64,000 bases of DNA from Candidatus Moraniibacteriota bacterium (GTDB taxonomy: Bacteria > Patescibacteriota > Minisyncoccia > Moranbacterales > UBA1568): the NCBI GenBank assembly GCA_016699385.1, contig CP064974.1, positions 195,242 to 259,241 of the forward strand. Reading direction: 5' to 3'. The notes below the pieces were generated by a model that saw only the letters and a program-made list of their open reading frames with translations, was not told where the DNA came from and ran no database searches. This document shows, one piece after another, positions 3,791 to 56,890 of the stretch. The position numbers and the translations under genes were made by a program. The first letter of the stretch is position 1; the number at the start of each line of letters is the position of its first letter.

Positions 3791-3829
3791 GAGGGAAGTA
3801 CGCTCTTTAGAGTCTGCTAAGAAGAACAA

Positions 3830-7361: not shown

Positions 7362-7520
7362 AGCCTATCTCAAAAATAATCTTTGCTTTACTTTCTGTAA
7401 ATTTTGACGGGAAATCATTCAAAATTCGTTGAAATATCTCGATATACCTCCTCGTTTTTCATGATTTTCCATTCAAATTTCCTAAAAAGCGTCGAAAGCT
7501 ATTTTTGAGATAGGCTCTAG
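7357..7520. repeat. Perfect 21-bp inverted repeat (CTAGAGCCTATCTCAAAAATA / TATTTTTGAGATAGGCTCTAG) bracketing 121 bp
   Basis: Seen directly at 7357-7377 and 7500-7520; the left arm overlaps the stop codon of the VirD4-like gene. Confidence 0.8.
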
Positions 7521-8256: not shown

Positions 8257-9342
8257 ATGTCTCAATACGATACACAATCTGAGATTGCTAAAGAAAATGC
8301 GAAGAAACACGGAGTTGTTCGTGTTCGGACGGTGCTTTTTGGACTGCTCCTTACGGGTATTTTGGCTATGCTGGGGCTATCCTTGCTTGTGGCATTTGCT
8401 CCGGATGCATCCGTTGGCGTGGTTATGCGTCGCGTCCTTCCGTTTCCGGTTGCCATTGCCGATGGTGCTTTCATCTCATATGGCGAACTCGATAAGAATC
8501 GAGAGTCTCTTCGCCGTTTTTACGAATCGCAGTCGGATGATTTGGAACAGCGGGGATTTCGTGTGGATTTCAACACGCCAGATGGAAAGAAACGATTGCT
8601 TCTTCGAGAGAAGGATATTTTAAACAAGCTTGTGGAAGATCGCATCATTCTTTTCTTGGCACAGGGAAAGGGCATTCGATTCTCCGATGGAGAAGCGATG
8701 GCAAAGGTTAAAGAGGCGATACAAGAGCAGGGTGGCAGTCAAGAAAATCTTGAGAATCAACTCGCGCGTTTCTATGGATGGAACCTTTCGGAGTTTAAAG
8801 AGAAGATTGTTGTTCCATCGCTTTATCGGGAAGCACTTGAGGCGTCTTTCATGAAAGAGCGTGACGTGACAGCGGCAAAGTCGGCAATTGAGAAAGCGGC
8901 TTCAGAGCTTAGTAATGGGACGGCGTTCGAAACTGTTGCAGAGACGTTTTCGGATGGTGACTCCAAGAAAGATGGCGGCGATCTCGGCTGGACAGATATT
9001 GAGGCATTGGTTCCGGAACTGCAGGATGCGGCGCGAACACAGTCTATTAATGCGGTTGGGTCGATACTTGAGAGTACGCTTGGATTCCATATTGTGGTCG
9101 TCTTGGATCGGAAAACAGAATCCGGAAAAGAGCTGGTTCGAATGCGGCAAATATTTACGCGAAAGCCATCATTTCCGGACTGGCTTGCTGAGAAGAAGCG
9201 TGAGGCAGTAATTTTTATTCTTCCTCGTCGCTATCTCTGGGATGCGGAAAGTGGGAGTGTCATATTTCGTGACGAAGCGTTGCGTGCTTTTGAGAAGACG
9301 GCGCTTCAACAATCTGAAGGAGATCCCTCGCTTGTCTTCTAA
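8257..9342 (+). CDS. PpiC/parvulin-type peptidyl-prolyl isomerase (PrsA/SurA-like), membrane anchored
   Basis: Parvulin signature DGGDLGWTD...GFHIVVVL and an N-terminal TM segment. Confidence 0.8.
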   Translation: MSQYDTQSEIAKENAKKHGVVRVRTVLFGLLLTGILAMLGLSLLVAFAPDASVGVVMRRVLPFPVAIADGAFISYGELDKNRESLRRFYESQSDDLEQRGFRVDFNTPDGKKRLLLREKDILNKLVEDRIILFLAQGKGIRFSDGEAMAKVKEAIQEQGGSQENLENQLARFYGWNLSEFKEKIVVPSLYREALEASFMKERDVTAAKSAIEKAASELSNGTAFETVAETFSDGDSKKDGGDLGWTDIEALVPELQDAARTQSINAVGSILESTLGFHIVVVLDRKTESGKELVRMRQIFTRKPSFPDWLAEKKREAVIFILPRRYLWDAESGSVIFRDEALRAFEKTALQQSEGDPSLVF

Positions 9343-32029: not shown

Positions 32030-32281
32030 CTAGGCGACGGATGGGGTGTACTCCAAGCGGTCGGCGTATTCTTGTTGCTTGCCCTTGTTCCATTGCTCGA
32101 CGGGGCGGATATAGCCGACGACGCGCGTGTAGGTTTCGGTTTTCTGGAAGTCGGAGAGTTCCGGTTTTGCCTCATGGCACGCGCGACACTTCGCCATTGT
32201 TTTCCCGTTCACTTCGTAGGGCATATACTCTGCCCCTCTCTCGAGCGCCTTCCCACAATCATGACAGGTTATCTTTTGCAT
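32030..32281 (-). CDS. Stand-alone NrdD C-terminal module: zinc ribbon plus glycyl-radical motif (83 aa)
   Basis: CHDCGKALERGAEYMPYEVNGKTMAKCRACH (CxxC...CxxC) then TRVVGYIRPVEQWNKGKQQEYADRLEY, which matches the class III RNR glycyl-radical segment (RV/ICGY...WN.GK..E..DR). Own AGGAAA RBS 7 nt upstream of the ATG. Confidence 0.7.
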   Translation of the reverse strand: MQKITCHDCGKALERGAEYMPYEVNGKTMAKCRACHEAKPELSDFQKTETYTRVVGYIRPVEQWNKGKQQEYADRLEYTPSVA

Positions 32282-32293
32282 AACTTTTTTCCT

Positions 32294-32308
32294 AACAAAT
32301 TATTTGTT
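32294..32308. promoter_or_regulatory. 15-bp perfect palindrome AACAAAT-T-ATTTGTT immediately upstream of the RBS of the glycyl-radical ORF
   Basis: Seen directly; AT-rich palindrome reminiscent of repressor boxes. No assignment possible. Confidence 0.3.
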
Positions 32309-32327
32309 TAGAGTCTGTTGAGAAGGG

Positions 32328-32409
32328 CTGTTTTTCAGAAAAAATTGTTTTTTTACTTGTCTACGCTTGCTCCGAAAGCCGCAAAAAAACAATTTTTTCT
32401 GAAAAACAG
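32328..32409 (-). ncRNA. Hairpin element copy A: 27-bp perfect stem (CTGTTTTTCAGAAAAAATTGTTTTTTT) with conserved 28-nt loop ACTTGTCTACGCTTGCTCCGAAAGCCGC, between nrdD and the glycyl-radical ORF
   Basis: Seen directly; a second copy with an essentially identical loop and a different but complementary stem is at 34720-34774. Confidence 0.6.
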
Positions 32410-32449
32410 TGCGAGAAGTACGCCTTTTTGATACTTTTTTAGCAGGCTC

Positions 32450-34528
32450 TCAGACTTTTTGATATTCCTTTGTGGTTGAAATAGTGATGCATTGTGGGCA
32501 CGTCTTGTGTTCGCCGGGGAGGTAACCGTGGGTGGGACAGACGCTGAAAGTGGGAGAGAGTGTGAAATAGGGGAGATGGTATTTCTCGGCGATACGGCGG
32601 ACGAGAGTGCGTGCCATATCGGGGTCATTGATGCGTTCGCCCAAGAATCCGTGGAGGACGGTGCCGCCCGTGTACTGCGTCTGCAGGTTATCCTGGAGGT
32701 CGAGGGCTTCGAAGATATCGTCGGTAAAGCCAACAGGAAGATGCGAAGAATTGGTGTAGTAGGGTTCGGCGTGTCGAGTCTGCACTTCTTTCTGATTGGC
32801 AACGATGATATCAGGATAGTGTTTCTTGTCGAGGAGCGCGAGGCGATAGGCGGTGCCTTCGGCGGGAGTCGCTTCGAGATTGTAGAGATTATTGGTCTTT
32901 TCTTGGTAGTTTCCGATATGCTCGCGCATGTGTGTCAGAATTCTCTTGGCAAATGCCTGACCTTTTTCGGTGGTGATATCGGTATGGATGAGATTTTGAA
33001 TGGCTTCATTGGTGCCGACGAGTCCAATGGTGGAGAAATGATTCTTCCAGTATTGATGGAATCGCTTCTTGATATTTCCGAGGTAGAATTTTGTATAGGG
33101 GTAGAGGCCCTTTTCGGTGAGTTGCTCGACGATTTTCCGTTTGACTTCGAGGCTTTCTTGAGCGATGTCCATGAGGCGATCAAGACGCTTGAAGAAATCC
33201 TTTTCATTCTTGGAAAGGTAGCCGATTCGAGGGAGATTGATAGTGACGACGCCGATTGAGCCGGTTAGGGGATTGGCGCCGAAGAGTCCGCCGCCGCGCT
33301 TCCGAAGTTCGCGATTGTCGAGGCGTAGGCGACAGCACATACTGCGCGCGTCGTCCGGACTCATGTCGGAATTGACGAAGTTGGCGAAGTAGGGGATGCC
33401 ATATTTGGCGGTCATTTCCCAGAGCGGAGCATAGGCGGGATTTTCCCAGTCGAAATTCTTGGTGATGTTGTAGGTCGGGATAGGGAAAGTGAAGATACGT
33501 CCCGAAGCATCTCCTTCGCACATTACTTCGGCAAAGGCGCGGTTGATCATTGCCATCTCCGTGGCGAAGTCGCCATAGGTTTCTTTCTGTGGCTCGCCGC
33601 CGATGATGACGTGGTTCTTTGCGAGAATCTTGGGCGGGATGATGTCCATCGTGATGTTCGAAAACGGCGTTTGGAATCCGACGCGCGTCGAGACATTCAT
33701 GTTGAAGACGAAAGATTGGATTTCCTGTTTTACCTGTGCATAAGAAAGTTTGTCTTTTCGAACGAAGGGAGCAAGGAGTGTGTCAAAGTTGGAGAATGCC
33801 TGCGCGCCGGCGACTTCGCCCTGGAGGGTGTAGATAAAATTAACCATTTGTCCCAAGATTGATCCCAGGTGCTTGGCAGGTTTGCAAGAAACTTTGCCAG
33901 GGACGCCGGTGAAGCCTTGTCGCAAGAGGTCTTCGAGATCCCAGCCACAACAGTAGGCAGAGATGAGTTGGAGATCGTGAATATGGAGATCGCCGGATTC
34001 GTGGGCATCACGCACTTCTTTGGAATAGATTTTGTTCATCCAGTACTTGGTGCTGATAGCACTCGAGACATAGTTGTTGAGCCCTTGGAGAGAATACGCC
34101 ATGTTTGCATTTTCCTTCACAAGCCAGTCGAGATTGCCGATGTATTTGTCGACGAGGTGCACGGCTTTGACGAGAGATTCTTCCGTTTCGCGGACTTCCG
34201 CGTGTTGCTGTCGGTAGAGGATATAGGCTTTGGCGGTGTCATGAAAGCCTTCGGACATGAGGACGGTTTCGACGAGGTCCTGAATCTCTTCTATTTTTGG
34301 AATGAAGGGACCGAGGTTTTGCTTTGCGTAGTGTCGAGCTTTCTTTTCGAGGAGGGAGAGGACTTTCTTGCCGACGCGTGCGGCGTCTTTTTCACTTCCT
34401 TCCGTGGTTGCAAAGAGCGCTTTCTCGATGGCATTAATAATCTTGTACGGATTGAACGATGTGGTTCGTCCACTTCTTCTTCGTACGGATTCGATGGATA
34501 CTTTCTCTGTTTTCTTTCTTTGTTTCAT
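32450..34528 (-). CDS. nrdD: Anaerobic ribonucleoside-triphosphate reductase (class III) with N-terminal ATP-cone; ends at the zinc ribbon and lacks the glycyl-radical motif
   Basis: 692 aa; ATP-cone N-terminus (VRRRSGRTTSFNPYKIINAIEKA), conserved NrdD core, C-terminal CPTHGYLPGEHKTCPQC, then a TGA stop; no RxCGY-type motif in the ORF. Confidence 0.9.
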   Translation of the reverse strand: MKQRKKTEKVSIESVRRRSGRTTSFNPYKIINAIEKALFATTEGSEKDAARVGKKVLSLLEKKARHYAKQNLGPFIPKIEEIQDLVETVLMSEGFHDTAKAYILYRQQHAEVRETEESLVKAVHLVDKYIGNLDWLVKENANMAYSLQGLNNYVSSAISTKYWMNKIYSKEVRDAHESGDLHIHDLQLISAYCCGWDLEDLLRQGFTGVPGKVSCKPAKHLGSILGQMVNFIYTLQGEVAGAQAFSNFDTLLAPFVRKDKLSYAQVKQEIQSFVFNMNVSTRVGFQTPFSNITMDIIPPKILAKNHVIIGGEPQKETYGDFATEMAMINRAFAEVMCEGDASGRIFTFPIPTYNITKNFDWENPAYAPLWEMTAKYGIPYFANFVNSDMSPDDARSMCCRLRLDNRELRKRGGGLFGANPLTGSIGVVTINLPRIGYLSKNEKDFFKRLDRLMDIAQESLEVKRKIVEQLTEKGLYPYTKFYLGNIKKRFHQYWKNHFSTIGLVGTNEAIQNLIHTDITTEKGQAFAKRILTHMREHIGNYQEKTNNLYNLEATPAEGTAYRLALLDKKHYPDIIVANQKEVQTRHAEPYYTNSSHLPVGFTDDIFEALDLQDNLQTQYTGGTVLHGFLGERINDPDMARTLVRRIAEKYHLPYFTLSPTFSVCPTHGYLPGEHKTCPQCITISTTKEYQKV

Positions 34529-34550: not shown

Positions 34551-34781
34551 GATTTTGGAGAAAAGAAAAACCGTGGACATCAAGACCTCCCCCACGGAGT
34601 GCGCGTTTCCGTTGTGCGCCTCCTCATTATCTTCCAAAGTTTCTAACTCGTAAAGTTTCCTTTGGTGGAAAGAAAAATGGTATACTTTGAAGAGCACTGT
34701 CTCGCGGAAGTATTCGGCAGAAATTCTTTTTTACTTGTCTATGCATGCTCTGAAAGCCACAAAAGAAGAATTTCCACCAAA
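34551..34781 (-). promoter_or_regulatory. Structured nrdD 5' leader: hairpin element copy B (34720-34774, loop ACTTGTCTATGCATGCTCTGAAAGCCAC), an enclosing 11-bp helix (34661-34671 with 34771-34781), and a terminator-like hairpin (CCGTGG...CCACGG plus U-run, 34551-34597) about 25 nt before the start codon
   Basis: All pairings seen directly in sequence and read on the minus (mRNA) strand. This is the architecture expected for a cis-regulatory RNA with an expression platform. Confidence 0.5.
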
Positions 34782-34827
34782 TGCAGCGCATCATTTGAAG
34801 AAGAAATAATCCATCATTTTCTGCCGT

Positions 34828-36951
34828 ATGAACATTCAGTCTTTGTTTGAGCCGAAATCAATCGCTATTGTGGGAGCATCGACGAAGGTTGGGAGTGTCG
34901 GAAACGACATCGTGAAGAATTTGGTCGAGCAAAAATATCAGGGCGAAATATACCCAGTCAATCCAAAGACTGATTCACTCTATGATCGACGCTGTTACCC
35001 ACATCTTGCGGCGATTGAGGGAGAGGTTGATTGCGCTATTATCGCGGTCCCAGCGCCAATTGTGTCAACTGTTTTGCGAGAGGCAGTGGCAAAGCAAGTG
35101 AAAAGCGCGGTGGTTATTTCCGCCGGGTTTCACGAAGCAGGGAATGCCGAACTCGAGCGGGAAATCTCCGATATTGCACGTTCGGGTGATATGGCGCTTC
35201 TTGGTCCGAATTGTCTCGGTGTAGTCAATCCGCATCTCTCCATGAATGCCTCTTTTGCGCGGACGCTTCCGAAGAAGGGCAATATCGCATTTTTATCACA
35301 AAGCGGCGCACTCGGAACAGCCGTGCTCGATATGGCAGCAAATATCGGTGTGGGTTTCTCGAAATTTGTGAGTCTTGGGAATAAAGCGCTTCTTGATGAG
35401 TCGGCACTGCTTGAATATTTTGCAAATGATAGGAAGACGAAGGTGATTGCTATATACGCCGAGGATCTTCGAAATCCTACGGCAATTAAGAATGTGGCGC
35501 GCGCGATGGCACTGGCAAAGAAGTCGAAACCAATCATCATACTCAAATCAGGGAAAACATCGGCAGGTGCACAGGCGCTTTCATCGCACACCGGGTCTCT
35601 TGCGGGAAATGATGCGAGTTATGAGGCGCTCTTTGAGGAGGCGGGGATTCTTCGTGCCGAGACAGCGGAAGAGCTCTTTTTGCTGGCGCGAGGTTTCTCG
35701 CTTCTCCCGCTTCCTCTGGGGAAAAATATTGCCGTACTCACCAATGCCGGCGGTCCGGGTGTGCTCTCTGCGGATGCGGCGCTTGAGTCAGGACTTTCGC
35801 TTGCGCCGCTTTCTGAGGCGACGATGACCGAATTGCGTTCGTTTTTGCCACTAGCTTCGGGTGTGAAAAATCCAGTTGATATCTTGGGCGATGCAAAAAG
35901 TGACCGCTATGCTCGTGCGCTCGACACGATTCTTCTCGATACGTCCGTTCATATGGTGATGGTGGTGCTCACGCCACAGTCTATGACGGATGTTGAAGCA
36001 ATAGCAGAAGTAATCGCGGAGCGTGCCAAAGTGGCTACTGTGCCAATGGTTGCTGCCTTCATGGGAGGGAAGCTGGTTGCTGGTGGCATCAAAGTGCTTC
36101 TGCGAAAAAAGGTCCCTGTAGTCGGGTTTCCGGAAGATGGCATACATATGCTCGCCGCACTCGCGCACTTTCGCGAAATGCGAGAAGAGATGCGGGTTGA
36201 TGCGGGAGATTTCTCAGGATTCGAAGCATCGGGAACGATTGACCGGTCGCGAGTCGAAGCGATTTTCCATGAAATAGAAGTATCTGGACGGAAGGCGTTG
36301 TCGGCAGTGGAGACGCTCGAGGTGTTTTCGGCGTATGGACTCTCTCTGCCTCGATATGCTGTTGCAACGACTGCCGAAGAGGCGAGTCGAGTGGCACGTG
36401 AGATTGGCACACCTTGTGCGCTGAAAATTCTGTCGGAAGACATCACACACAAGAGCGACGCAGGCGGTGTCCTTCTCAATATCTCGCCGGAAAATGCCGG
36501 AGCGTCGTTTCAGGCGATTATAGACCGTGTGAGAGCTTCTTCTCCCGAGGCGAAGATAGAGGGCGTATTATTTATGGAAATGGCAGCAAGGGGTGGTATT
36601 GAACTCATTGCGGGCAGCTTCCGCGATCCAAACTTGGGACAGACTATTATGCTCGGGAGTGGCGGTATCTATGTCGAAATTTTGAAAGACGCGGCGTTTG
36701 GTCTCGCTCCGGTTTCTCGGAATCGTGCCGAAGAAATGCTTCGGAAACTCCGAATCTTCCCGCTGCTCGATGGTGCGCGCGGTGGCACGAAATACGATGT
36801 TGCTTCCGTCGTTGAATGCGTCGGTCGCCTCTCGCAACTTCTCGCTGATTTCCCCGCTATCCACGAACTCGACATCAACCCAATTATCGTCTATCCGCAG
36901 TCTTCAGAGAGCACACATGCTCTCATTGTCGATGGTCGACTGTCATTGTGA
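34828..36951 (+). CDS. ADP-forming acetyl-CoA synthetase / acyl-CoA synthetase (NDP-forming), fused alpha-beta
   Basis: N-terminal CoA-binding domain (SIAIVGASTKVGSVGNDIVKNL), succinyl-CoA-synthetase-like flavodoxin domain and C-terminal ATP-grasp; 707 aa. Confidence 0.85.
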   Translation: MNIQSLFEPKSIAIVGASTKVGSVGNDIVKNLVEQKYQGEIYPVNPKTDSLYDRRCYPHLAAIEGEVDCAIIAVPAPIVSTVLREAVAKQVKSAVVISAGFHEAGNAELEREISDIARSGDMALLGPNCLGVVNPHLSMNASFARTLPKKGNIAFLSQSGALGTAVLDMAANIGVGFSKFVSLGNKALLDESALLEYFANDRKTKVIAIYAEDLRNPTAIKNVARAMALAKKSKPIIILKSGKTSAGAQALSSHTGSLAGNDASYEALFEEAGILRAETAEELFLLARGFSLLPLPLGKNIAVLTNAGGPGVLSADAALESGLSLAPLSEATMTELRSFLPLASGVKNPVDILGDAKSDRYARALDTILLDTSVHMVMVVLTPQSMTDVEAIAEVIAERAKVATVPMVAAFMGGKLVAGGIKVLLRKKVPVVGFPEDGIHMLAALAHFREMREEMRVDAGDFSGFEASGTIDRSRVEAIFHEIEVSGRKALSAVETLEVFSAYGLSLPRYAVATTAEEASRVAREIGTPCALKILSEDITHKSDAGGVLLNISPENAGASFQAIIDRVRASSPEAKIEGVLFMEMAARGGIELIAGSFRDPNLGQTIMLGSGGIYVEILKDAAFGLAPVSRNRAEEMLRKLRIFPLLDGARGGTKYDVASVVECVGRLSQLLADFPAIHELDINPIIVYPQSSESTHALIVDGRLSL

Positions 36952-39867: not shown

Positions 39868-39923
39868 CTGTAGCAAGAAAAAAAGAAAAGAAAAACCGGT
39901 CTGCATATGCGAATGAGACCGGT
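39868..39923 (-). terminator. Intrinsic terminator for the minus strand (8-bp stem ACCGGTCT/AGACCGGT, then long U-run)
   Basis: Seen directly downstream of the 39995-40360 gene. Confidence 0.6.
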
Positions 39924-42912: not shown

Positions 42913-42950
42913 GACGGCTGTTCTATCTTTGAACAGCCGTCTTTTTTCTC
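42913..42950 (+). terminator. Intrinsic terminator (11-bp perfect stem GACGGCTGTTC/GAACAGCCGTC plus TTTTTT)
   Basis: Seen directly downstream of the PadR-like gene. Confidence 0.8.
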
Positions 42951-48564: not shown

Positions 48565-48786
48565 GTGACTTGGAAGATGCAAGGGCATGGTGCGATCTTG
48601 GGAATAGAAGAGCATTCTCAAGGAAATGTCGAATCGACAAGGAATCGGCGACCACTTGAATTGCTTTGTTATGAAGCCTACTCTTTCAAAGAGGAAGCCC
48701 TGGGGAGAGAAAAATATTTGAAAACAAGTGATGGAAAAAAAGACCTGAAGAAGAGATTGACAAAAAGTTTTACGGAAGGGTGCTAG
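48565..48786 (+). pseudogene. GIY-YIG nuclease family protein, N-terminally truncated remnant (GIY strand missing), overlapping the tRNA-Ser 5' end
   Basis: EEHSQGNVESTRNRRPLELLCYEAYSFKEEALGREKYLKTSDGKKDLKKRL matches the C-terminal two-thirds of small GIY-YIG proteins (R..xP..L.Y.E.F....A...E..LK...G). GTG start directly after the upstream stop in the same frame. Confidence 0.55.
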
Positions 48787-48860
48787 AGTGGTCGAATAGG
48801 ACAGTCTCGAAAACTGTTGTACCGGAAACGGTACCGTGGGTTCGAATCCCACCCCTTCCG
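48774..48860 (+). tRNA. tRNA-Ser (anticodon CGA), type II tRNA with long variable arm; no encoded CCA
   Basis: Cloverleaf folded by hand: acceptor GGAAGGG/CCCTTCC, D-stem CUA/UAG, anticodon stem ACAGU/ACUGU with loop CUCGAAA, variable stem-loop UACCG-GAAA-CGGUA, T-arm GUGGG-UUCGAAU-CCCAC, discriminator G. Confidence 0.9.
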
Positions 48861-50330
48861 CATTTGTTCAATATCCGCCGTACCCCCTGCTTTTTCAAGT
48901 ATGCGGTACGGCTGTTTTAGTGTATACGAAGCCATCTCGCCATTTACAATCGTCGCGTTCAAAAGTACCGTTTCCAGTACCTTCCTCTTTTTCACATCAT
49001 CGCCCTCGATAAAATCCTTTTCCGCACCAGAAGCGGACAAAAAGACTTTTTTCACCTGTTCTAAAGTGCGAGTCATGGTTTCGGGATTGTGCCTCTCCAA
49101 TTCCTTGAGTCGCTGTTGTATCTCGGCGGTTTCTTTGTTGAAGGCTTCCAGCTTCGCGTCTACGGTCTCTCCCGCATACTTTCCCGCCAGTTGGATATCA
49201 AGAAGCCTCATCTCTTGTTGTGCGAGTGTCTCGCGCCGTTTTTCGAGGTTTGACTTCATGGTTTCAAAGAAACTCCCGTCTTTTTTGTTTTTCTCTCGGT
49301 CGGCTTCGTAGCACAACTCGATGAATTCTTCGTCAAAGTGAATTTTCTTGAAGATTGAGGCAAGTATTTTCTCGGCTTCTTCACTTCGCATATACTGCTT
49401 GTGCGCTTCACAGTTTCCTTTCCCATTGGTGCAGTAGTAATACGTGAAGCCTTTCTTCTCCATGGCGGTCATGAGACACCCGCACGAATGACAGGTCATA
49501 AAGCCTCGCAAAGGGAAAAAATGTTTCTTGTATCGGCTTCTGTTTTTTCCCGTGAAAACATCCTGTGTCTTCTCAAACAATTCTTTGGATATGATGGTTT
49601 CGTGATTGCCCGAATAATATATGCCGTGGACATACATGATGCCGTGATAGAAAGGGTCTTTGAGAATTTTCTGAATTCTTCCTTTGCGATATTTGTACCC
49701 GCTTCGAGAACGGAAGCCTTCTTGAAAAAGCAGGTCGGATATTTTTTTGAGGCTATAACTTCCCGAAGCGTACAATTCAAAAGCCCTCTTGATAAAGGGG
49801 GCGCGTTCGGTATCAACGAGTATCGTTTTGTTGAGTCGGTCGTTGAGGTATCCAATTTTGGCATAATTGGGGTAGCCGCCATTTTCCAGTTTCGACGCCA
49901 TGCCTCGCTTTACTCGTGTACTCAAGGTGCGGATTTCCTGATTTGCTTCTCCGGTTTTAACACTGAAAAGTACGGCGTCATCGCTTGGCAGATAGCATTT
50001 CTCCATCGTCTGAATTTCCTTGATGATTCCTTCCTGCAAAAGCCACAGGATTTTTCCGCTGTCTATCGGGTTTCTCGAAAGGCGGTCTAATGCCCAGCAG
50101 ACAATGCCGTCTGCTTCGCCGTCTTCAATCATTCGTATCATTTCCGTAAACATCGGGCGATTGTAGGGTTTCTTGGCGGACTTGGATTCGGCGAAGACTT
50201 TGATGATATTCAAGCCCAATTCACTTGCCCGTCTTTGCATGTTGCTGATTTGCGATTCAAGGGAGAGGGCTTGCCGATTCTTGTCTTCGGAAGATTTTCG
50301 GACGTAGAGGAGGTATTTCATAGTGTCCAT
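48783..50330 (-). CDS. Large serine recombinase (resolvase/invertase catalytic domain, recombinase domain, zinc ribbon); annotated C-terminus reads through the tRNA
   Basis: N-terminal YVRKSSEDKNRQALSLESQ (catalytic Ser context), C-terminal CHSCGC...YYYC zinc ribbon; 515 aa. The last ~25 aa are the translated tRNA complement, so the true end is probably earlier. Confidence 0.9.
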   Translation of the reverse strand: MDTMKYLLYVRKSSEDKNRQALSLESQISNMQRRASELGLNIIKVFAESKSAKKPYNRPMFTEMIRMIEDGEADGIVCWALDRLSRNPIDSGKILWLLQEGIIKEIQTMEKCYLPSDDAVLFSVKTGEANQEIRTLSTRVKRGMASKLENGGYPNYAKIGYLNDRLNKTILVDTERAPFIKRAFELYASGSYSLKKISDLLFQEGFRSRSGYKYRKGRIQKILKDPFYHGIMYVHGIYYSGNHETIISKELFEKTQDVFTGKNRSRYKKHFFPLRGFMTCHSCGCLMTAMEKKGFTYYYCTNGKGNCEAHKQYMRSEEAEKILASIFKKIHFDEEFIELCYEADREKNKKDGSFFETMKSNLEKRRETLAQQEMRLLDIQLAGKYAGETVDAKLEAFNKETAEIQQRLKELERHNPETMTRTLEQVKKVFLSASGAEKDFIEGDDVKKRKVLETVLLNATIVNGEMASYTLKQPYRILEKAGGTADIEQMRKGWDSNPRYRFRYNSFRDCPIRPL

Positions 50331-50355
50331 AAGCTACCGAAAACAAAGGATAAAA

Positions 50356-51123
50356 TCAAGCAGACGAAGCATTGAGACGAAAAATCGCGTAGAAAATTTC
50401 TCCGAGGTAATTGCTGGTAAATGTCGTTTCCCACCCATTTTCCATATTTCCAGCATTCTCTTGCATGAAAACTCGGGCGTCGTCGTTGACGATTTCAACT
50501 GGTCTTTCCAAATCCTGTGAACAAAAAAACTTCTTCTTCTTGCCAAGCATTCTTTTGTCGAACATATCTTTCTGCAGGTACTTTGACAGGTATCGTCCCA
50601 AGTTGGAAACATGCCGTACTCGCTTGATTTTGATAAACCCATTGCCCCAAATTTTCTCGATTTCCTTGCTTCTTACATACCGCAAGTTGCAAAGCAGGTG
50701 GTAATGCGCCGCGCCGCCCTCGGGTTTCACGTTTCCGAAAAAATCCACGTCTTTCTGAAATTCCAAGACGGCAAAGTACTGAAACTCGGGAAAGCGGTCT
50801 TTCATGCGCTGGGTGAAGAGATTAAAACAGTGATTCGATTTTTTTCCGTCGGTTATCTTCGAGGTGAGTGTCAAAAACTTTGTGAGTTGTGGGTTTGAGT
50901 TTACAGTCCGTCGAATTTCTCGGCGAGTACGTCGAACGGAGGATTCCGCTTTTTCCGTCTGACCTTTTTCTTCTTTCTTGTCGTTCTCATTTTTTTCTCG
51001 TTTCCTGCGTTTGTAGTTGCGAAGGACGGGTCGGTCTTTGTACTGGTATTGTTCGCATTCAAAACCAGAAACCACCACTTTTTCATAAATTCTCTCGGTA
51101 TACCTTCCCGTAGATGTGTTCAT
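50356..51123 (-). CDS. Rolling-circle replication initiator (HUH endonuclease superfamily Rep)
   Basis: Motif 1 FLTLT, motif 2 AHYHLLCN (HUH), motif 3 GRYLSKYLQK (catalytic Tyr-x-x-Lys). Confidence 0.65.
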   Translation of the reverse strand: MNTSTGRYTERIYEKVVVSGFECEQYQYKDRPVLRNYKRRKREKNENDKKEEKGQTEKAESSVRRTRREIRRTVNSNPQLTKFLTLTSKITDGKKSNHCFNLFTQRMKDRFPEFQYFAVLEFQKDVDFFGNVKPEGGAAHYHLLCNLRYVRSKEIEKIWGNGFIKIKRVRHVSNLGRYLSKYLQKDMFDKRMLGKKKKFFCSQDLERPVEIVNDDARVFMQENAGNMENGWETTFTSNYLGEIFYAIFRLNASSA

Positions 51124-51127
51124 AGAA

Positions 51128-51430
51128 TCAAGTTAAGAGAGGAACACTGGGTGCTTGCATTTCCCTCGCTGGCGCGTCAAGGTCGTGCGCCTTCGGCGCC
51201 TCCACCTTGACCCGCACTCGGGAAATGCGGGTACCCTCATAGGTTTCCTTCGGAAACCTTGTTTCACCGGAAGCCACAGGGGAACGGGTGCCATAAGAAA
51301 ACGCTGAATACAAAGTCGCCATCGAAGCAAGGTACAAGTCGGCTTCTTCATGGTTTATCGTTTCTCCGTGGACGCGGAGGAAGTACTCGATAAGCTTGTC
51401 TCGGAGGTTTTGGGTGAAGGAGTAGGACAC
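51128..51430 (-). CDS. Hypothetical small protein
   Basis: ORF track only; overlaps the candidate origin hairpin, so coding status is doubtful. Confidence 0.2.
   Translation of the reverse strand: MSYSFTQNLRDKLIEYFLRVHGETINHEEADLYLASMATLYSAFSYGTRSPVASGETRFPKETYEGTRISRVRVKVEAPKAHDLDAPAREMQAPSVPLLT
51163..51223. promoter_or_regulatory. GC-rich nested hairpin immediately upstream of rep (GTCAAGGT...ACCTTGAC enclosing GCGCC-TTC-GGCGC): candidate replication origin (dso/sso)
   Basis: Inverted repeats seen directly; position relative to rep fits RC-plasmid origins (inference). Confidence 0.3.
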
Positions 51431-51496
51431 AAAAAAAGACCGTATTGATTTACGGTCTTTAGGGTAGAGAGTTTTGAGGGGACGGTATAAGGCGCG

Positions 51497-52207
51497 CTAG
51501 GTTTTCTTGGGTGATATGCAGTTTGCGCCTTTTTTAAGCCTTGTGATGATGTTTAGAATATCCTCATAGTTGAGTCGTGGTATTTTGTACTTTTCGTTTA
51601 TCTTCGACGCAATGTCTTGTGTTTTCATTCCTGCTTTGTAAAGGCTGAATATTTCCATGTCTCTTTCCAAGTTTTTCCGTCTGTTTTTTCTCCCGAGTTT
51701 TCTTTGCGCCAAGATTTCTTGTTGAGCCCTTTTGATTCTTGGCCAATTGGCTTTCATGTCGCCCCACGACGTTTCGGGGTATATTTTTAATGGGATAACT
51801 CCTCGTGTTTCCGTGGTTGTAAAATATGGGTTGAGGTGCCACATTTCTGAACGTAACTTGCAATTATTCATGTTTCCTTCTTGAACAAGATACAGGATTG
51901 CCAATTGGTATGACTCCGAGAGTATGTATTTTTCTCTCAACGCTTTCACGTCTTTTTTCAAAGGTTCGAGTACGTCCAAGAGGTGTTTCGGCGTACCATC
52001 TTTTTCTCTTTGTTCGGGAGGGGCGGGAAAATGGTATTTTTCCTGCAATACGCGTATGTCTGCCATGAAGTCGTCGTCCGTCATCAAAAGGGAGACTCCT
52101 TGGAGAATTTTTTCTTCGAAGGTGAATTTGGGAGGCATAGGGAAGGTATTTTCTAGGTCAGTGAAGTTATAGGGTATTTTGAGGTTGGTGTCAAAGTGAA
52201 GATGCAA
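51497..52207 (-). CDS. Hypothetical protein with C-terminal HTH-like segment (element 1)
   Basis: 236 aa; C-terminal MKTQDIASKINEKYKIPRLNYEDILNIITRL resembles a DNA-binding HTH. Confidence 0.4.
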   Translation of the reverse strand: MHLHFDTNLKIPYNFTDLENTFPMPPKFTFEEKILQGVSLLMTDDDFMADIRVLQEKYHFPAPPEQREKDGTPKHLLDVLEPLKKDVKALREKYILSESYQLAILYLVQEGNMNNCKLRSEMWHLNPYFTTTETRGVIPLKIYPETSWGDMKANWPRIKRAQQEILAQRKLGRKNRRKNLERDMEIFSLYKAGMKTQDIASKINEKYKIPRLNYEDILNIITRLKKGANCISPKKT

Positions 52208-52356
52208 AGAATGAGGCTTTATGAAGCATTTTTACTGTATTTTCGTGAGTGGGTATTGACTAATAAAAGAGAATATTATATACTCCACAGTTATCGGAAA
52301 CGAAAACCCGTATCACGTCGGCCACGTGAAGAGTACTTTAATTTCGAGGTATCGTC

Positions 52357-52653
52357 ATGGCACAAGTCATTACAGAAGGTAGCGTTCCTTCACCGGAAGA
52401 GTGGTCTACGCAGATTAAATGTATTGGTAGCGGTAGCGATGAAAGTAAAGGATGTGGTGCCATACTTAAAGTTACTAAGGACGATGTAGTCTTGATGAAG
52501 TGGTATGGCACTCACTTCAAGCATCACTATCCGGCGACTCAATGTCCGCGCTGTTTGAAATACACTTACATCAAAGAACTGCCTGATACCATCTGGAAAC
52601 CACTCCTGAAAAAGGGAAAGGCTATTTTTGATGGGGTTGATGACCGTATTTGA
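52357..52653 (+). CDS. Hypothetical zinc-ribbon protein (element 1)
   Basis: CIGSGSDESKGCG ... CPRC cysteine pairs; 98 aa. Confidence 0.35.
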   Translation: MAQVITEGSVPSPEEWSTQIKCIGSGSDESKGCGAILKVTKDDVVLMKWYGTHFKHHYPATQCPRCLKYTYIKELPDTIWKPLLKKGKAIFDGVDDRI

Positions 52654-52807
52654 CGGACAACAACTTTTCCTATCTCGAACACAACTGTCCACACAGAATG
52701 GCGCAATAACCTCGAGAACACGAAGACATCTTGACCGATATGCCCTGTGCGTATCGGTCTTTTTTATGCTACAGTTAGCTGATTTGAGAAATGGCTTTGA
52801 TACACTA

Positions 52808-52843
52808 AATACGTTCTCACTTCGTCCCACCCCTTCCGCCAAT
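52808..52843 (+). repeat. attR-like repeat 1: TACGTTCTCACTTCGTCCCACCCCTTCCGCCAAT (partial tRNA-Ser 3' end)
   Basis: 34-bp sequence identical to 56453-56486; 15-bp core TCCCACCCCTTCCGC identical to the tRNA 3' end. Confidence 0.8.
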
Positions 52844-53281
52844 TTTCATTTTTGTTCGAAACGGTAGAACGTGGAGTGTTGCTTCGTGGTGCGCTCGCTC
52901 TTGTTATTTCGGACAAAAGTAAAAAAGTAAGCAATGCGCGCCTCGCGTTTCCGCTGCTTTGTAAACAGAGGCGTCACAATGGGATCTTTATGTTTTTTAG
53001 CTTGGGATTTGTTACCTGTGTATAGATTTGTGTCGTCCGTATATTGCTATGCCCCAAAAGCTCTTGCACATATCGAACATCGGTACCGTTCTCTAAATTT
53101 CGCTTCACCCCATTCTTTCACGATGCTCGGCGCTGACGCCCGCTCTTAGAAAGAATCCGATTTTGTTTTTCTTTTATTGTAGAGGGGAAATATGGAGTTT
53201 TCTCCGCTTCGCTACGAAAACATTTATCTTATAAGGGAAAAACGGACATAATGCAATTGCTTAGTTTGAAAAATAATAAAT

Positions 53282-53965
53282 ATGAACCCACTTAAAACAA
53301 ATGGTCTAATAATACAGAGCTTTCCGCAAGAGAAATATGAATCTATTCACCTTATTTTAAGTAGCAGATATGCAGAAAAGAATGAATACGAACATTTTTC
53401 AGGAGCGTGGAATGCTATAGCATATCGATACAGAGGAGCAATTGACTATGGAAGTGATTTCGTCAAATTAATAAAATTATACGGAACAGCACCACAGCCA
53501 GAAAAAAGATATTTACAAGAACAAGCTCTTTTTAATCATTTCAGTTCTTGCTTTTCAGTTTTTGAATCAGTGTGTTATGGATTTTTTGCGATAGGATCTA
53601 TTATTAATCCAGAATATTTTTCCATAAGCGACAAAGCTGATCAACGAAAAATATCTCCAGAAACAACAAAAAAAACTTTTCAAAAGGCATTTCCTGATGA
53701 ACAAATCACTAAAACATTAATTGAGTTAACTGCCGATTCAGAATTCGAAAATATTAGAAATACTAGGAATATTCTTATTCATAGAACAGCGCCGGGAAGA
53801 AAGATTTATCTACACATAGGAGAGGATGAATCACTCCCGACAGAATGGAAATTGAACAATAAACCCTTAAATGAATTGATAGTCAAATCAAACGAGGATA
53901 GCATGGAAATGCTTTTAAATAATTTACTAACTGCAGGAGAAGTTTTTTGCAGGTCACATTTATAA
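53282..53965 (+). CDS. Hypothetical protein with C-terminal HEPN-like R-N-x3-H motif (NIRNTRNILIHRT): candidate RNase toxin / abortive-infection effector
   Basis: 227 aa, AT-rich codon usage; the motif was seen directly but the HEPN assignment is by motif only. Confidence 0.45.
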   Translation: MNPLKTNGLIIQSFPQEKYESIHLILSSRYAEKNEYEHFSGAWNAIAYRYRGAIDYGSDFVKLIKLYGTAPQPEKRYLQEQALFNHFSSCFSVFESVCYGFFAIGSIINPEYFSISDKADQRKISPETTKKTFQKAFPDEQITKTLIELTADSEFENIRNTRNILIHRTAPGRKIYLHIGEDESLPTEWKLNNKPLNELIVKSNEDSMEMLLNNLLTAGEVFCRSHL

Positions 53966-53969
53966 TTAT

Positions 53970-54953
53970 ATGGCACGTAAAAATATTTTAAAAATACCAG
54001 CTAAAATAAGAAATCAGATAAAAACATTTAGTCAGGATGATGTTGTTGTAGCTTGTGTAAAATATATTCCAAAAGAAGAAATTCATAGATGCAAACATCT
54101 GAGGATACGCTATATTGACGGCGAACTTATTCTCCCACCTTCGGAAACCCCAAATCCTAATACCGGGAAATTTTCTCGGGCAAACCTGGAAGGTTTGGAG
54201 AAAAAAAGAACTGATTTGCCAAAAATATCAAAAGAATTCAGCTCTGAAGCTCCAAATTGGAATGGAAATGGTGCGCATGTTGTTTCTTATTCGCGAGATG
54301 TATATCGAAAAGATTTTTATCCACCCAAAGAAGTTGAGTTGAAAATTGAGCAAATAGAAAAAAGAGAGCATGGTTTCAAAATAAAATTTTTAATTGATCA
54401 AGTAATTAATCGAAATACTCCGAATTTTGAAAAAGAATTATTGTACAACTTAAATTTATTACAAGAAAACGTTGGAATGATAGATGTCTTTCCGAGTATT
54501 GCAACTTTGGCAGATTACGCAAAAACCGTTTATATTGATTGGGAAATATTACCGCCAGGAACCGTTGATGAAATTATAGAAGCTTTGCTAAAGAACCAAA
54601 AAACAGAAAGTATTACCCCAGATCAAATAAAAATAATGAGAGAAAGAATAGGTGTTATGTCAAAATTAAAGCCCGTTGTTTATATAAAAGGTACAAATGG
54701 TTTTTTAAGATATTTTGGGGCAAAGTTCGGAGATGATTTTGTTGTTTTTGAAAATATAAAATATGGAAACGCCTTATATATAATGTATAATTCATGGGCG
54801 GAGCTAAGTAAAAAAAGCAGGACAGAATTACTCAATGGACCAAGAGAAGACTTTGATCGCATAGAACATAGAGATGGATGGGGTGATGTTTTACAAAAAT
54901 TTGTTAGAGAATATAGGCGTAAAAACAAAACTATAAATGAAGGGCTATTTTAA
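53970..54953 (+). CDS. Hypothetical protein (327 aa), operon partner 4 nt downstream of the HEPN-like gene
   Basis: No recognisable motifs; tight coupling (stop at 53965, start at 53970). Confidence 0.45.
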   Translation: MARKNILKIPAKIRNQIKTFSQDDVVVACVKYIPKEEIHRCKHLRIRYIDGELILPPSETPNPNTGKFSRANLEGLEKKRTDLPKISKEFSSEAPNWNGNGAHVVSYSRDVYRKDFYPPKEVELKIEQIEKREHGFKIKFLIDQVINRNTPNFEKELLYNLNLLQENVGMIDVFPSIATLADYAKTVYIDWEILPPGTVDEIIEALLKNQKTESITPDQIKIMRERIGVMSKLKPVVYIKGTNGFLRYFGAKFGDDFVVFENIKYGNALYIMYNSWAELSKKSRTELLNGPREDFDRIEHRDGWGDVLQKFVREYRRKNKTINEGLF

Positions 54954-55304
54954 AGAAATTTAATTAGAAACCAATTTCCTGTACATGACAAATAAAAGGA
55001 GTTTTTGATTTTTGGCATGCACCCCTACCTCTCTGGCCAAAATCCAAAACAGAAAAAGAAATTTTAAAATTTTTTAAAACAATTCCGACATTAGTCGGAA
55101 AAAAGAAAAGGAATACATCAGCTAACAACGAGTATCCGGTTACGGCTTTTACACAAAAGCCTCCATCCAAATTTTTCCTCCGCTACGCTACAGAAAAACT
55201 TCGGATACTCGTAACGTTAAGTGACATATTTCCAAGTCTCTTTTTTAGAATAAGGAACGAGTGAAAAATTTTCTTTATTTTAATGAGGGGAAATAAGGAA
55301 TTTT

Positions 55305-55580
55305 CTCAGCTTCTTCACTCCGCAAATATCGCTTGCGCGCTTCACAGTTTCCTTTGCCATTGGTGCAGTAGTAATACGTGAAGCCTTTTTTCTCCATGGC
55401 GGTCATGAGACATCCGCACGCGTGGTAATTCATAAAGTCTCGAAGCGGAAAGAAATGCTTTTTGTATCGGCTTCGATTTTTTCCTGTGAAAACATCTTGC
55501 GCCTTCTCAAACAACTCTTTGGAAATGAGAGTGTCGTGATTGCCCGCGTAATATATCCCGTGGACATAGCCTGCCTGCTT
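55305..55580 (-). pseudogene. Serine recombinase gene remnant (internal zinc-ribbon region only)
   Basis: 79-aa ORF MFEKAQDVFTGKNRSRYKKHFFPLRDFMNYHACGCLMTAMEKKGFTYYYCTNGKGNCEARKRYLRSEEAEKI is ~90% identical to residues of the full recombinase at 49380-49650; nucleotide similarity extends about 270 bp. Confidence 0.8.
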
Positions 55581-55620
55581 GTGGTAATGTCAAAATGTAA
55601 AAATTAGGTAAAATAAAAAT

Positions 55621-56337
55621 ATGAATAAAAATATAAGAACAGAGATTGCTGTGGGAATAATACTTGTCATTTTTATTGTTATTGTGGGTTTTATTTGGCT
55701 GGGTAGCAAACAGCAAACATTGGATTCAGTAGTTAAACCCGTGGTCAAATCCGTAGAAAATCAAAGTATAACTGAAAAGAAAAGTCTTCCAGCAACTCTT
55801 TCTTCTTCTGCTGCTGGTAGAGATACGTCTGGACGTGAGCTTAAAGTCGAAGACATATCAATTTCAAATGTTAAATTCACTTTGCCAAACTCAACCATTG
55901 ATTCCCCTGTAAAAAATAATTTTTCATTTCAAAATGTAAAAAAATATACGTTGACGACGCCTACAGGAGTCGCACCAATTTTTTATGTTGACGACCAACC
56001 ACAGAGAGACGGGACTGTTAAGAGTGTAGAAGTGGATGTCCCAAGTGGAAAATCTATAATAGGCGTCAGAGTAATAGTTAGCAACGAGAAAAACACTGCT
56101 AGTTTGTCAATAAACCCGAATTTTCTTTTATCAGTCAATGATATAAAAGTAGCCCCAGTTAACTATAATGTTGCTAGCTTTAGTATTCCGGGTGGGGCTT
56201 CGGTTGAATTTGAGTATTTATTTGCAGTGGGTGAAAAGACAAATACTTTCGTATTGAGTTTTGGCGAAAATACGGAAAATCCAGAGGGTCGACTTCTTGT
56301 TGACTTTGGGCAGAAAAATTTTACCTCATTAAAGTAG
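55621..56337 (+). CDS. Hypothetical membrane-anchored/secreted beta-rich protein (element 2)
   Basis: N-terminal TM IAVGIILVIFIVIVGFIWLG then a Ser/Thr/Asn/Val-rich domain. Confidence 0.45.
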   Translation: MNKNIRTEIAVGIILVIFIVIVGFIWLGSKQQTLDSVVKPVVKSVENQSITEKKSLPATLSSSAAGRDTSGRELKVEDISISNVKFTLPNSTIDSPVKNNFSFQNVKKYTLTTPTGVAPIFYVDDQPQRDGTVKSVEVDVPSGKSIIGVRVIVSNEKNTASLSINPNFLLSVNDIKVAPVNYNVASFSIPGGASVEFEYLFAVGEKTNTFVLSFGENTENPEGRLLVDFGQKNFTSLK

Positions 56338-56451
56338 TTTTTTTGCTTCTCACACAGTGCTTATCTTGAAGCCTCCACATAGGAGGCTTTTTGTTTCCAA
56401 AAATTTATCGTACAATCATGGGTACTTGGTGGAATGATGGAAATTGAAGCA

Positions 56452-56487
56452 CATACGTTCTCACTTCGTCCCACCCCTTCCGCCAAT
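56452..56487 (+). repeat. attR-like repeat 2 (second partial tRNA-Ser 3' end copy)
   Basis: Identical 34-bp sequence to 52809-52842. Confidence 0.8.
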
Positions 56488-56890
56488 CTCAAGTTGATGA
56501 AGAAACACTAATTCAGATAAAAGAAAAAATTAAGGATAATTTAAAGTAGTGCCCCTTTGTCTGACTTTCTCGCTATCGCTCGAACCACGCTTCGCTCTTA
56601 CTTCGCTACGCTACATTCGTGTCTTCAGCAAGAGATAAAAGAAAAATTGCTCGGCTTGAGATCCCTCCTAAATTTCTTTCGCTACATTCCGCAAACTTCT
56701 CATAATCCTGACGTTATTCGCAATTTCACTTTGCTCCATTGCGAATAAAGCCTGCGGATGATAATCTTGCTATTCTCCTCCATTTCGCTTCGCGAAACTC
56801 CGTATAACAGCGAGATATTCGAAATTTTCCTTTCAAGAATTTCATTTCTTTTCAGAAAAACGTCGCATCATCCGTAGGCGTTATATTCAA

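Follow-up and report, generated by a model that had tools for sequence, protein, structure and literature searches.

Intrinsic terminators in the leaders of bacterial mRNAs are known from riboswitch expression platforms and from protein-dependent antitermination systems such as BglG/SacY-RAT or PyrR. Stabiliser hairpins at the 5' terminus of bacterial mRNAs, for example that of ompA, are a further known type of leader structure, and the NrdR box is a 16-bp palindrome with the consensus acaCwAtATaTwGtgt. The present analysis concerns the 5' leader of nrdD, the gene for the class III ribonucleotide reductase (RNR), in a 64-kb stretch of DNA from Candidatus Moraniibacteriota (Patescibacteria), hereafter the window, in which the leader is read on the minus strand. 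Nrd-boxes are discussed in PMC3848588, where a cobalamin riboswitch is also annotated in the 5' untranslated regions (UTRs) of nrdDG and nrdAB of Propionibacterium acnes.

A preliminary description of the window had joined 231 bases, which lie within the 299-nt intergenic interval between nrdD and a divergent gene, into one riboswitch-like leader composed of an 11-bp enclosing helix, a long hairpin (element B) and a terminator-like hairpin before the start codon. In the reading that we consider on balance probable, these bases would be three separate things and not a single RNA: a promoter at 34654-34626, element B as a repeat inserted on its upstream side, and a leader of about 63 nt that would act as a lineage-specific attenuator. 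The multi-helix architecture dissolves, and a real, selected, nrdD-specific leader remains.

The nrdD loci of relatives, with NrdD protein identities from 94% to 72%, were collected by scanning genomes, by protein look-ups and by a single DNA-pattern scan of metagenomes, and are labelled L001, L002 and so on. The nearest genomes are metagenome-assembled genomes of Candidatus Moraniibacteriota (Patescibacteria). The same NrdD protein is encoded on a contig of the NCBI assembly GCA_049643625.1 and on a Logan contig. L001 and L002 are contigs of the same species, and L001 represents a sister strain.

The conserved leader (34619-34557) lies within a 5'UTR of about 91 nt whose start site is predicted. 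Its layout, common to 13 distinct leaders, consists of a first hairpin (H1), a 3-nt linker, a second hairpin (H2) and a U-tract:

34601-34619, minus strand: H1, the predicted 5'-terminal hairpin, formed by GCGC, an 11-nt loop and GCGC; its GCG:CGC base is invariant.
34571-34597, minus strand: H2, a terminator-like hairpin, CCGUGG(G)/(U)CCACGG, with invariant arms.
34557-34570, minus strand: U-rich tract UUUUUCUUUUCUCC (DNA TTTTTCTTTTCTCC) directly after H2; TTTTT(C/G)TTTTC is invariant in all lineages.
34587-34599, minus strand: invariant 13-nt run CUCCGUGGGGGAG, which can form a small alternative hairpin, CUCC/GGAG, that excludes H2.

The H2 arms, CCGTGG (34597-34592) and CCACGG (34576-34571), are separated by a loop of 15 nt in the window and of 11-15 nt across lineages; the first bases of this loop are an invariant GGGAG, and the 6-10 bases after them vary. 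The apical part of H1 varies in sequence and length and still pairs, for instance as UCG/CGA in the L006 group, and in L034 H1 forms the perfect stem GCGACGA/UCGUCGC around a 4-nt loop. The alternative pairing of CUCC (34599-34596) with GGAG (34590-34587), 4 bp long, is invariant and is part of the minimum free energy structure of the full UTR.

The invariant runs of the leader comprise 13 nt (CTCCGTGGGGGAG) and 11 nt (CCACGGTTTTT). Across the same ten genomes only 16% of the 4-fold degenerate sites of nrdD are invariant, and pairwise identity at these sites is 53-66% in the nine cross-lineage comparisons. The contrast between the two figures indicates strong purifying selection on the promoter-proximal leader. 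The motif is also specific to its gene. A covariance model built from eight leaders found it upstream of nrdD only, in 424 kb of collected sequence; the four matches of an exact-pattern metagenome scan all precede nrdD and belong to the same lineages; and no second copy was found in the 64-kb window.

The position of the motif is fixed to the promoter and not to the start codon. H1 begins 6 nt after the -10 element in every motif-bearing lineage. The distance from the U-tract to the ATG, 28 nt in the window (34557 to 34528), reaches about 150 nt in L004 and about 330 nt in L034, and shrinks to 0 nt in L041. This arrangement argues for a role linked to transcription and against one in translation initiation.

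The promoter itself is predicted from two invariant blocks upstream of nrdD, AAACTTTACG and (G/C)ATAATG, present in 14 distinct leaders:

34649-34654, minus strand: predicted -35 hexamer TTTACG of the nrdD promoter, within the invariant block AAACTTTACGA, from a consensus scan.
34626-34631, minus strand: predicted -10 hexamer GATAAT of the nrdD promoter, from the consensus scan and invariance.
34619, minus strand: predicted transcription start, +/-2 nt, at the first G of the H1 core, from promoter geometry.
32450-34528, minus strand: nrdD large open reading frame (ORF), 692 aa, with ATP-cone and NRDD domain and without the glycyl-radical tail; ATG at 34528.
34828-36951, plus strand: divergent upstream neighbour, 707 aa, an ADP-forming acyl-CoA ligase-like gene.

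The gap between the two blocks is exactly 17 bp in every lineage, with at least six different spacer sequences among the 14 leaders, and this site is also picked out by the consensus scan (TTTACG, 17 bp, GATAAT, 34654-34626). Conserved hexamers 16-18 bp apart with a drifting spacer are what a sigma-70-type promoter presents. L043 and L044, whose NrdD proteins are 81% identical to that of the window, keep the promoter blocks alone and continue into an unrelated UTR. Because the gap is fixed while its sequence drifts, and because L043 and L044 retain nothing but the blocks, the blocks at 34654-34626 are a predicted sigma-70-type nrdD promoter and not an RNA motif. Six purine-rich bases, constant in length and variable in sequence, separate the -10 element from the first G of the GCG...CGC hairpin in the 13 distinct motif-bearing leaders, so the start is predicted at about 34619.

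Since nrdD and the CoA-ligase gene are divergent, the 299-nt interval must hold two promoters. The second may be marked by one further element:

34678-34686, plus strand: possible extended -10 of the divergent CoA-ligase-like gene, TGGTATACT, whose complement AGTATACCA is conserved.

AGTATACCA is kept wherever the CoA-ligase gene is the upstream neighbour, including L034, L042 and L045, and is absent in the L006 group. It is thus plausible that TGGTATACT serves as an extended -10 for that gene.

The sequence at 34571-34597 is a GC-rich hairpin followed directly by a U-tract, as in an intrinsic terminator. Such sites are rare: a scan for perfect GC-rich stems of at least 6 bp that close a loop of 3-16 nt and precede a 10-base stretch with at least 8 T returned five sites in the window against 0.27 expected, and H2 with TTTTTCTTTTCT is one of them. 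Three of the other four were checked (the site at 56371 being left out), and all three stand at gene 3' ends. The site at 39896-39922, after a 121-aa ORF, has a stem of 7-8 bp, a loop of 11-13 nt and a tail identical to that of H2, TTTTTCTTTTCT; that at 42914-42940 lies between convergent genes. The nrdG terminator is canonical, with 12 bp. H2 resembles these sites and appears to belong to the same class as the genuine terminators of this genome. It is found 29-55 nt downstream of the conserved -10, between the predicted start of transcription and nrdD, and cannot terminate the upstream gene because that gene is divergent. The terminator-like hairpin and U-tract of the preliminary description exist, with their limits corrected: the tract ends at 34557, not 34551, and 28 nt remain before the ATG.

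The proposed mechanism is as follows. Transcription would start near 34619, and H1 may protect the 5' end of the mRNA. H2 and UUUUUCUUUUC would act as a leader terminator or attenuator limiting read-through into nrdD. The CUCC...GGAG pairing is a possible competing antiterminator fold, which would need stabilisation by some factor. Bases that serve two exclusive folds would explain the invariance of the leader, and strong conservation is indeed expected in attenuator systems where bases have such a double duty. Known attenuators likewise have a GC-rich hairpin and U-tract between promoter (here predicted) and start codon, and a short alternative pairing that overlaps the 5' arm of the terminator, as CUCC/GGAG does. 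They differ from the nrdD leader in that the candidate antiterminator here is only 4 bp, the motif is confined to one Moraniibacteriota subclade, termination is predicted, and the leader comes without an identified sensor (aptamer, RAT-like element or binding protein). The leader would then be a narrowly distributed instance of the leader terminator, itself a known type.

Comparison with the described nrd systems gives a similar picture. The cobalamin riboswitch shares with the leader a cis-acting position upstream of nrdD(G) and is thought to act via premature termination, but it is about 200 nt long, and the leader of about 63 nt has no multi-helix aptamer and no family match. A scan of the window with Rfam 15 at gathering thresholds returned one tRNA only and no riboswitch or cis-regulatory family (cobalamin and purine/2'-dG included); at E<=10 the segment 34400-34950 gave chance microRNA and small nucleolar RNA matches only, well under their thresholds. 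There is also no match to the NrdR box within 3 mismatches in the nrdD leader, and no nrdR was found in the window by tblastn with the E. coli NrdR sequence as the query. The earlier statement that the leader fits neither an NrdR box nor a cobalamin riboswitch is borne out.

The promoters of nrdD or nrdR-nrdD in more distant Moraniibacteriota do carry NrdR boxes. The box of L051, ACACAATATATAGTGT, is perfect (0 mismatches) and lies beside TATAAT, and L051 also has the nrdR gene; the boxes of L050 and L042 have 2 and 3 mismatches. In L042, L050 and L051 the boxes occupy the same place as the leader, at or just after the nrdD promoter; unlike them, the conserved blocks of the leader are not AT-rich palindromes. 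In this subclade the unit of promoter and leader stands where NrdR control occurs elsewhere, and the leader device would be confined to one Moraniibacteriota subclade in place of the NrdR boxes of distant relatives. Several more distant relatives carry nrdR directly upstream of nrdD (L009, L010, L027 at about 3450-3940, L051 at 978-1427).

The remainder of the 231 bases lies upstream of the promoter, and the 11-bp helix is built from two arms there:

34771-34781, minus strand: 5' arm of the 11-bp helix, contained in the 5' arm of element B; identical in L001.
34661-34671, minus strand: 3' arm of the 11-bp helix, located in the DNA that separates the two divergent promoters; 3 of 11 positions differ in L001.

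The helix is present as described, with TTTGGTGGAAA (34781-34771) and TTTCCACCAAA (34671-34661) on the minus strand forming a perfect 11 bp, and a perfect 11-bp inverted repeat arose in 7 of 300 dinucleotide shuffles of the 299-nt region. Its part in a leader device falls away on comparison. L001, whose NrdD protein and element B are identical to those of the window and which has 98% identity at 4-fold sites, carries CTTTCAGCAAA in place of TTTCCACCAAA; the three changes are matched by none in the 5' arm and are hence uncompensated. The 5' arm was not found in any relative outside this species among the aligned upstream regions, and both arms lie upstream of the conserved nrdD promoter. Because of the uncompensated changes and the position of the arms, we take the helix to be a coincidence, a fortuitous strain-specific complement of the 5' arm of element B and inter-promoter DNA. 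The alignment of related nrdD leaders that had been suggested as a check retains the H1 base, the H2 arms and the U-tract as invariant and loses the helix pairing already in the sister strain.

The competing hairpin of the preliminary description is likewise retained in part. Its arms, GGAGGCGC (34623-34616) and GCGCACUCC (34604-34596), do pair, and they include H1 extended by GGAG:CUCC. In 1-3 of 10 lineages the pairs of this extension are disrupted with no compensating change, and the extension is probably located upstream of the transcription start.

Element B, presented earlier as a leader component, belongs to a family of palindromic repeats, of which the collected loci hold five distinct copies:

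34709-34787, minus strand: element B, an imperfect long hairpin and degenerate repeat copy; fold z = -2.4.
32328-32409, minus strand: element A, whose 27-bp stem is perfect and closes a 28-nt loop; it belongs to the family of B; fold z = -7.6.
L040 3466-3546: further family copy, after nrdG.
L003 about 7393-7498: further family copy, after nrdG.
L003 about 8442-8549: further family copy, between two ABC-transporter genes.

These are the copies found by nhmmer in about 420 kb of collected loci, two of them in the 64-kb window. Apart from the window, element B is present just in the same-species contigs L001 and L002 and is absent from the leaders of all other lineages. Element A occupies part of the 168-nt spacer that separates the nrdD large ORF from an 83-aa glycyl-radical ORF; the orthologous spacer is just 25-30 nt or so in L004 and L038, where the site is empty, and therefore element A too is an insertion. 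Both elements thus show presence/absence polymorphism at orthologous sites. In our reading element B is a copy of a low-copy palindromic repeat family, inserted upstream of the predicted nrdD promoter in this species only. The divergent CoA-ligase gene probably carries it, in antisense orientation, within its 5'UTR.

The copies are about 80-105 nt long, and their best-conserved part is the loop ends, GCGGCTTTC...AAGACAAGY; the L003 copies have an extra loop insert of about 20 nt. The arms diverge and yet pair, with A-U to G-C, G-C to C-G and UU:AA to GG:CC changes and matched 3-nt deletions in both arms. The five copies were folded one by one, as indels misalign the arms. Copies other than A have 22-29 paired positions, so that terminal inverted repeats surround a short non-coding core. 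The orientation is sense in 4 of 4 copies with co-directional neighbours, and 4 of the 5 copies fold better as sense RNA. Exact loop-pattern scans for A and B gave no matches in viral contigs and none in metagenome contigs. A promoter within the A/B loop was considered and rejected, the hexamers being poor and spaced by 15 bp, with the insert of the L003 copies falling there. All copies seen are within an nrd/znu-like gene neighbourhood, at different intergenic sites in different genomes.

The nearest analogues of A and B are the Correia repeat enclosed elements (nemis) of Neisseria and ERIC-type repeats. Shared features are long inverted-repeat arms around a conserved core, intergenic or intercistronic sites, a presence that varies between close relatives, and long hairpins when transcribed. 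A and B differ in their very low copy number (2 in 64 kb), in the lack of a target-site duplication, and in arms that diverge with pairing kept while the loop ends are best conserved. To our knowledge the A/B elements have no transposase partner, RNase III cleavage or promoter activity. They may be regarded as a new small palindromic repeat family, possibly a transposon-derived one. Correia/nemis and ERIC-type repeats can be RNase III substrates and can alter the expression of neighbouring genes (PMC2649163).

Several points weigh against a reading that combines promoter, insertion and attenuator. Not one pair with a compensatory change occurs in H1 or H2 across ten lineages, because the stems never vary, and shuffled sequences fold as well as the 5'UTR part (z = +0.2 to +1.0). 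As a terminator H2 is weak, having 6-7 bp, a loop of 13-15 nt and -9.8 kcal/mol, and a standard terminator scan, which requires a loop of 3-8 nt, misses it. The candidate antiterminator CUCC/GGAG has only 4 bp, and we know of no factor that binds it. The nrdD promoter matches the consensus at just 9 of 12 positions, and the start site, the 3' ends and any regulation are all predicted from sequence. As for the insertion, the repeat family is small (five distinct copies), its mobility follows solely from presence or absence at orthologous sites, and no direct repeat that could be a target-site duplication was seen by inspection around any of the five copies.

Four further candidates were considered in and around the leader and rejected. 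An outer helix proposed by RNAalifold has one column with changes on both sides, but it opposes a purine tract to a pyrimidine tract and would fall before the predicted +1. For a pseudoknot of the loop GGGAG with a downstream CUCC, the 3' partners are CUCC, CCCC, CCUC and CCC, pyrimidines only, indistinguishable from a pyrimidine tract. An upstream ORF from the AUG at 34580, after GGAGG, is contradicted by AUA, UUG, AUU and GUU in relatives and by non-triplet indels in the loop. The U-tract as a split ribosome-binding site or S1 enhancer does not agree with distances to the ATG of 0 to about 330 nt.

It is possible, though unlikely, that the leader is a constitutive 5'UTR, in which H1 and H2 stabilise the 5' end of the mRNA and the U-tract aids translation of an mRNA that has no Shine-Dalgarno sequence before its ATG. 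H1 would begin at the predicted +1, and like the ompA-type stabilisers it would have no unpaired 5' bases, conserved base pairs and an apex free to vary; it differs from them in that its 5' end is predicted. As the sole RNR gene seen in the window, nrdD may also need steady expression. The variable distance to the ATG argues against the initiation role, a stabiliser hairpin needs neither 13 invariant bases nor an invariant U-tract, and L043 and L044 use the same promoter without any of the leader.

A bolder proposal, which we hold to be somewhat less likely again, is that NrdR-box control of the sole RNR seen has been replaced by an undescribed leader RNA of about 63 nt, with the terminator hairpin (CUCCGUGGGGGAG...CCACGGUUUUU) itself the sensor, either as a minimal riboswitch or as the target of a dedicated RNA-binding antiterminator, tuning nrdD to nucleotide status.

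Its narrower form, a compact ligand riboswitch with the aptamer inside the terminator hairpin that senses a nucleotide-related metabolite, is doubtful. The extreme invariance around and inside the H2 loop (CUCCGUGGGGGAG) exceeds the needs of a plain terminator stem, the motif occurs with nrdD only and stands in place of NrdR boxes, and very small aptamers embedded in terminators exist, such as the HMP-PP/thiS riboswitch. Against these stand the lack of any Rfam match or covariation, the very narrow phylogenetic range, the free variation of the H1 loop and most of the H2 loop, and the absence of a multi-helix junction or internal loops for a pocket.

More doubtful still is a DNA operator for some transcription factor at +1 to +60, with CTCC-N5-GGAG and CCGTGG...CCACGG as candidate sites. 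Blocks that are invariant without compensatory change and lie immediately downstream of a promoter are as expected for DNA contacted by a protein, but the spacing of CCGTGG/CCACGG varies from 11 to 15 bp across lineages, a latitude that fits an RNA hairpin but not a DNA site bound by a dimer, the invariant T-tract 3' of the repeat is left unexplained and yet matches the local terminators, and the 64-kb window holds no second site.

Last, the single riboswitch-like leader, in which the 11-bp helix encloses element B together with a 48-nt segment and forms a switch with the terminator and a competing hairpin, is very improbable: all its pairings exist, its inverted repeat is uncommon by chance and the whole 299-nt interval folds slightly better than shuffles (z = -1.7), but element B and the 5' arm are missing in all other lineages that keep the rest of the leader, a sister strain with identical NrdD has the three uncompensated 3'-arm changes, both arms are upstream of the conserved promoter, and element B is a copy of a repeat found at unrelated sites. 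With the helix and element B excluded, and with neither covariation nor thermodynamic evidence for a ligand-binding fold, the suggestion of a new cis-regulatory RNA is plausible for the conserved, nrdD-specific, promoter-proximal part.

Should the leader work as the attenuator that we favour, it would be the first cis-acting control described for a class III RNR in Patescibacteria, which have tiny genomes and few regulators; nrdD is the only RNR gene seen in the window. It would also illustrate how an RNA device can take over from NrdR in a narrow lineage. For genome scans the lesson is that a palindromic repeat inserted beside a promoter can mimic a multi-helix riboswitch, and that a few close relatives suffice to part the insertion from the selected core. 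The hairpin repeat family with its covarying stems, and the two-piece NrdD described below, may interest specialists as much as the leader.

Two observations concern the surroundings of the nrdD promoter. A patch of about 40 nt over the promoter spacer differs sharply between the window (34632-34675) and L001 (5668-5711), GTTAGAAACTTTGGAA versus GCTCGTGCATGTGCGC, and each of the two spacer types is also found in more distant lineages, which suggests that promoter alleles were exchanged by recombination. In the L006/L048 lineage, tandem repeats of about 40 nt (CGTCGCTCGCGAGCGACGGTGGCTGGCTCA...) are located directly upstream of the nrdD promoter (L006 1-110, L048 about 8660-8830).

Other palindromic sequences were also seen. 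In L004 (3861-3979, also in L049) an unrelated palindromic insertion lies between the leader U-tract and the nrdD ATG, with 25-nt arms that are 96% complementary and 69 nt between them. Right after an ORF ending at 7361, the window has a perfect inverted repeat of 21 bp (7358-7520), its arms 121 nt apart, which may be another palindromic element.

NrdD is encoded in two pieces in the window. The 692-aa ORF ends just before the glycyl-radical motif, and a downstream ORF supplies that part:

32030-32281, minus strand: 83-aa ORF with a zinc ribbon and the NrdD glycyl-radical motif RVVGYIRPVEQWNKGK.

The small ORF aligns to residues 694-728 of an unsplit 737-aa NrdD. In L051 (1501-3985) NrdD is full-length (729 aa) and has an RVVGY tail of its own; after it comes an 86-aa ORF with a near-identical glycyl-radical segment. 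This suggests that the small ORF is a GrcA/YfiD-like 'spare part' that turned obligatory in this clade. About 105 clusters of such proteins of 80-130 aa occur across Patescibacteria, annotated merely as anaerobic RNR.

The junction between the large and small ORFs is an insertion hotspot. It measures 25-30 nt or so in L004 and L038 and 168 nt in the window (32282-32449, with element A), and holds AT-rich imperfect palindromes in L039 and L040, an extra ORF of 92-109 aa in L003 (6080-6390), a 100-aa ORF in L041 (4101-4527), and ORFs of 155 and 138 aa in L045 (4062-5475); L036 4080-4471 is also among these spacers. The last coding bases of the nrdD large ORF (TATCAAAAAG, 32455-32464) are repeated 31 nt downstream (32424-32433, minus strand), just before element A, and this repeat of TATCAAAAAG looks like a remnant of an older nrdD 3' end.

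Elsewhere in the window, a tRNA gene at 48774-48860 is followed by three more copies of the 3' end-like sequence TCCCACCCCTTCCGC, at 50429, 52825 and 56469. Two further repeats lie in the region 48774-56492, one perfect and of 35 nt (52809 and 56453), the other of 269 nt with 86% identity (49366 and 55300), and the pattern as a whole suggests integrated elements at a tRNA site.

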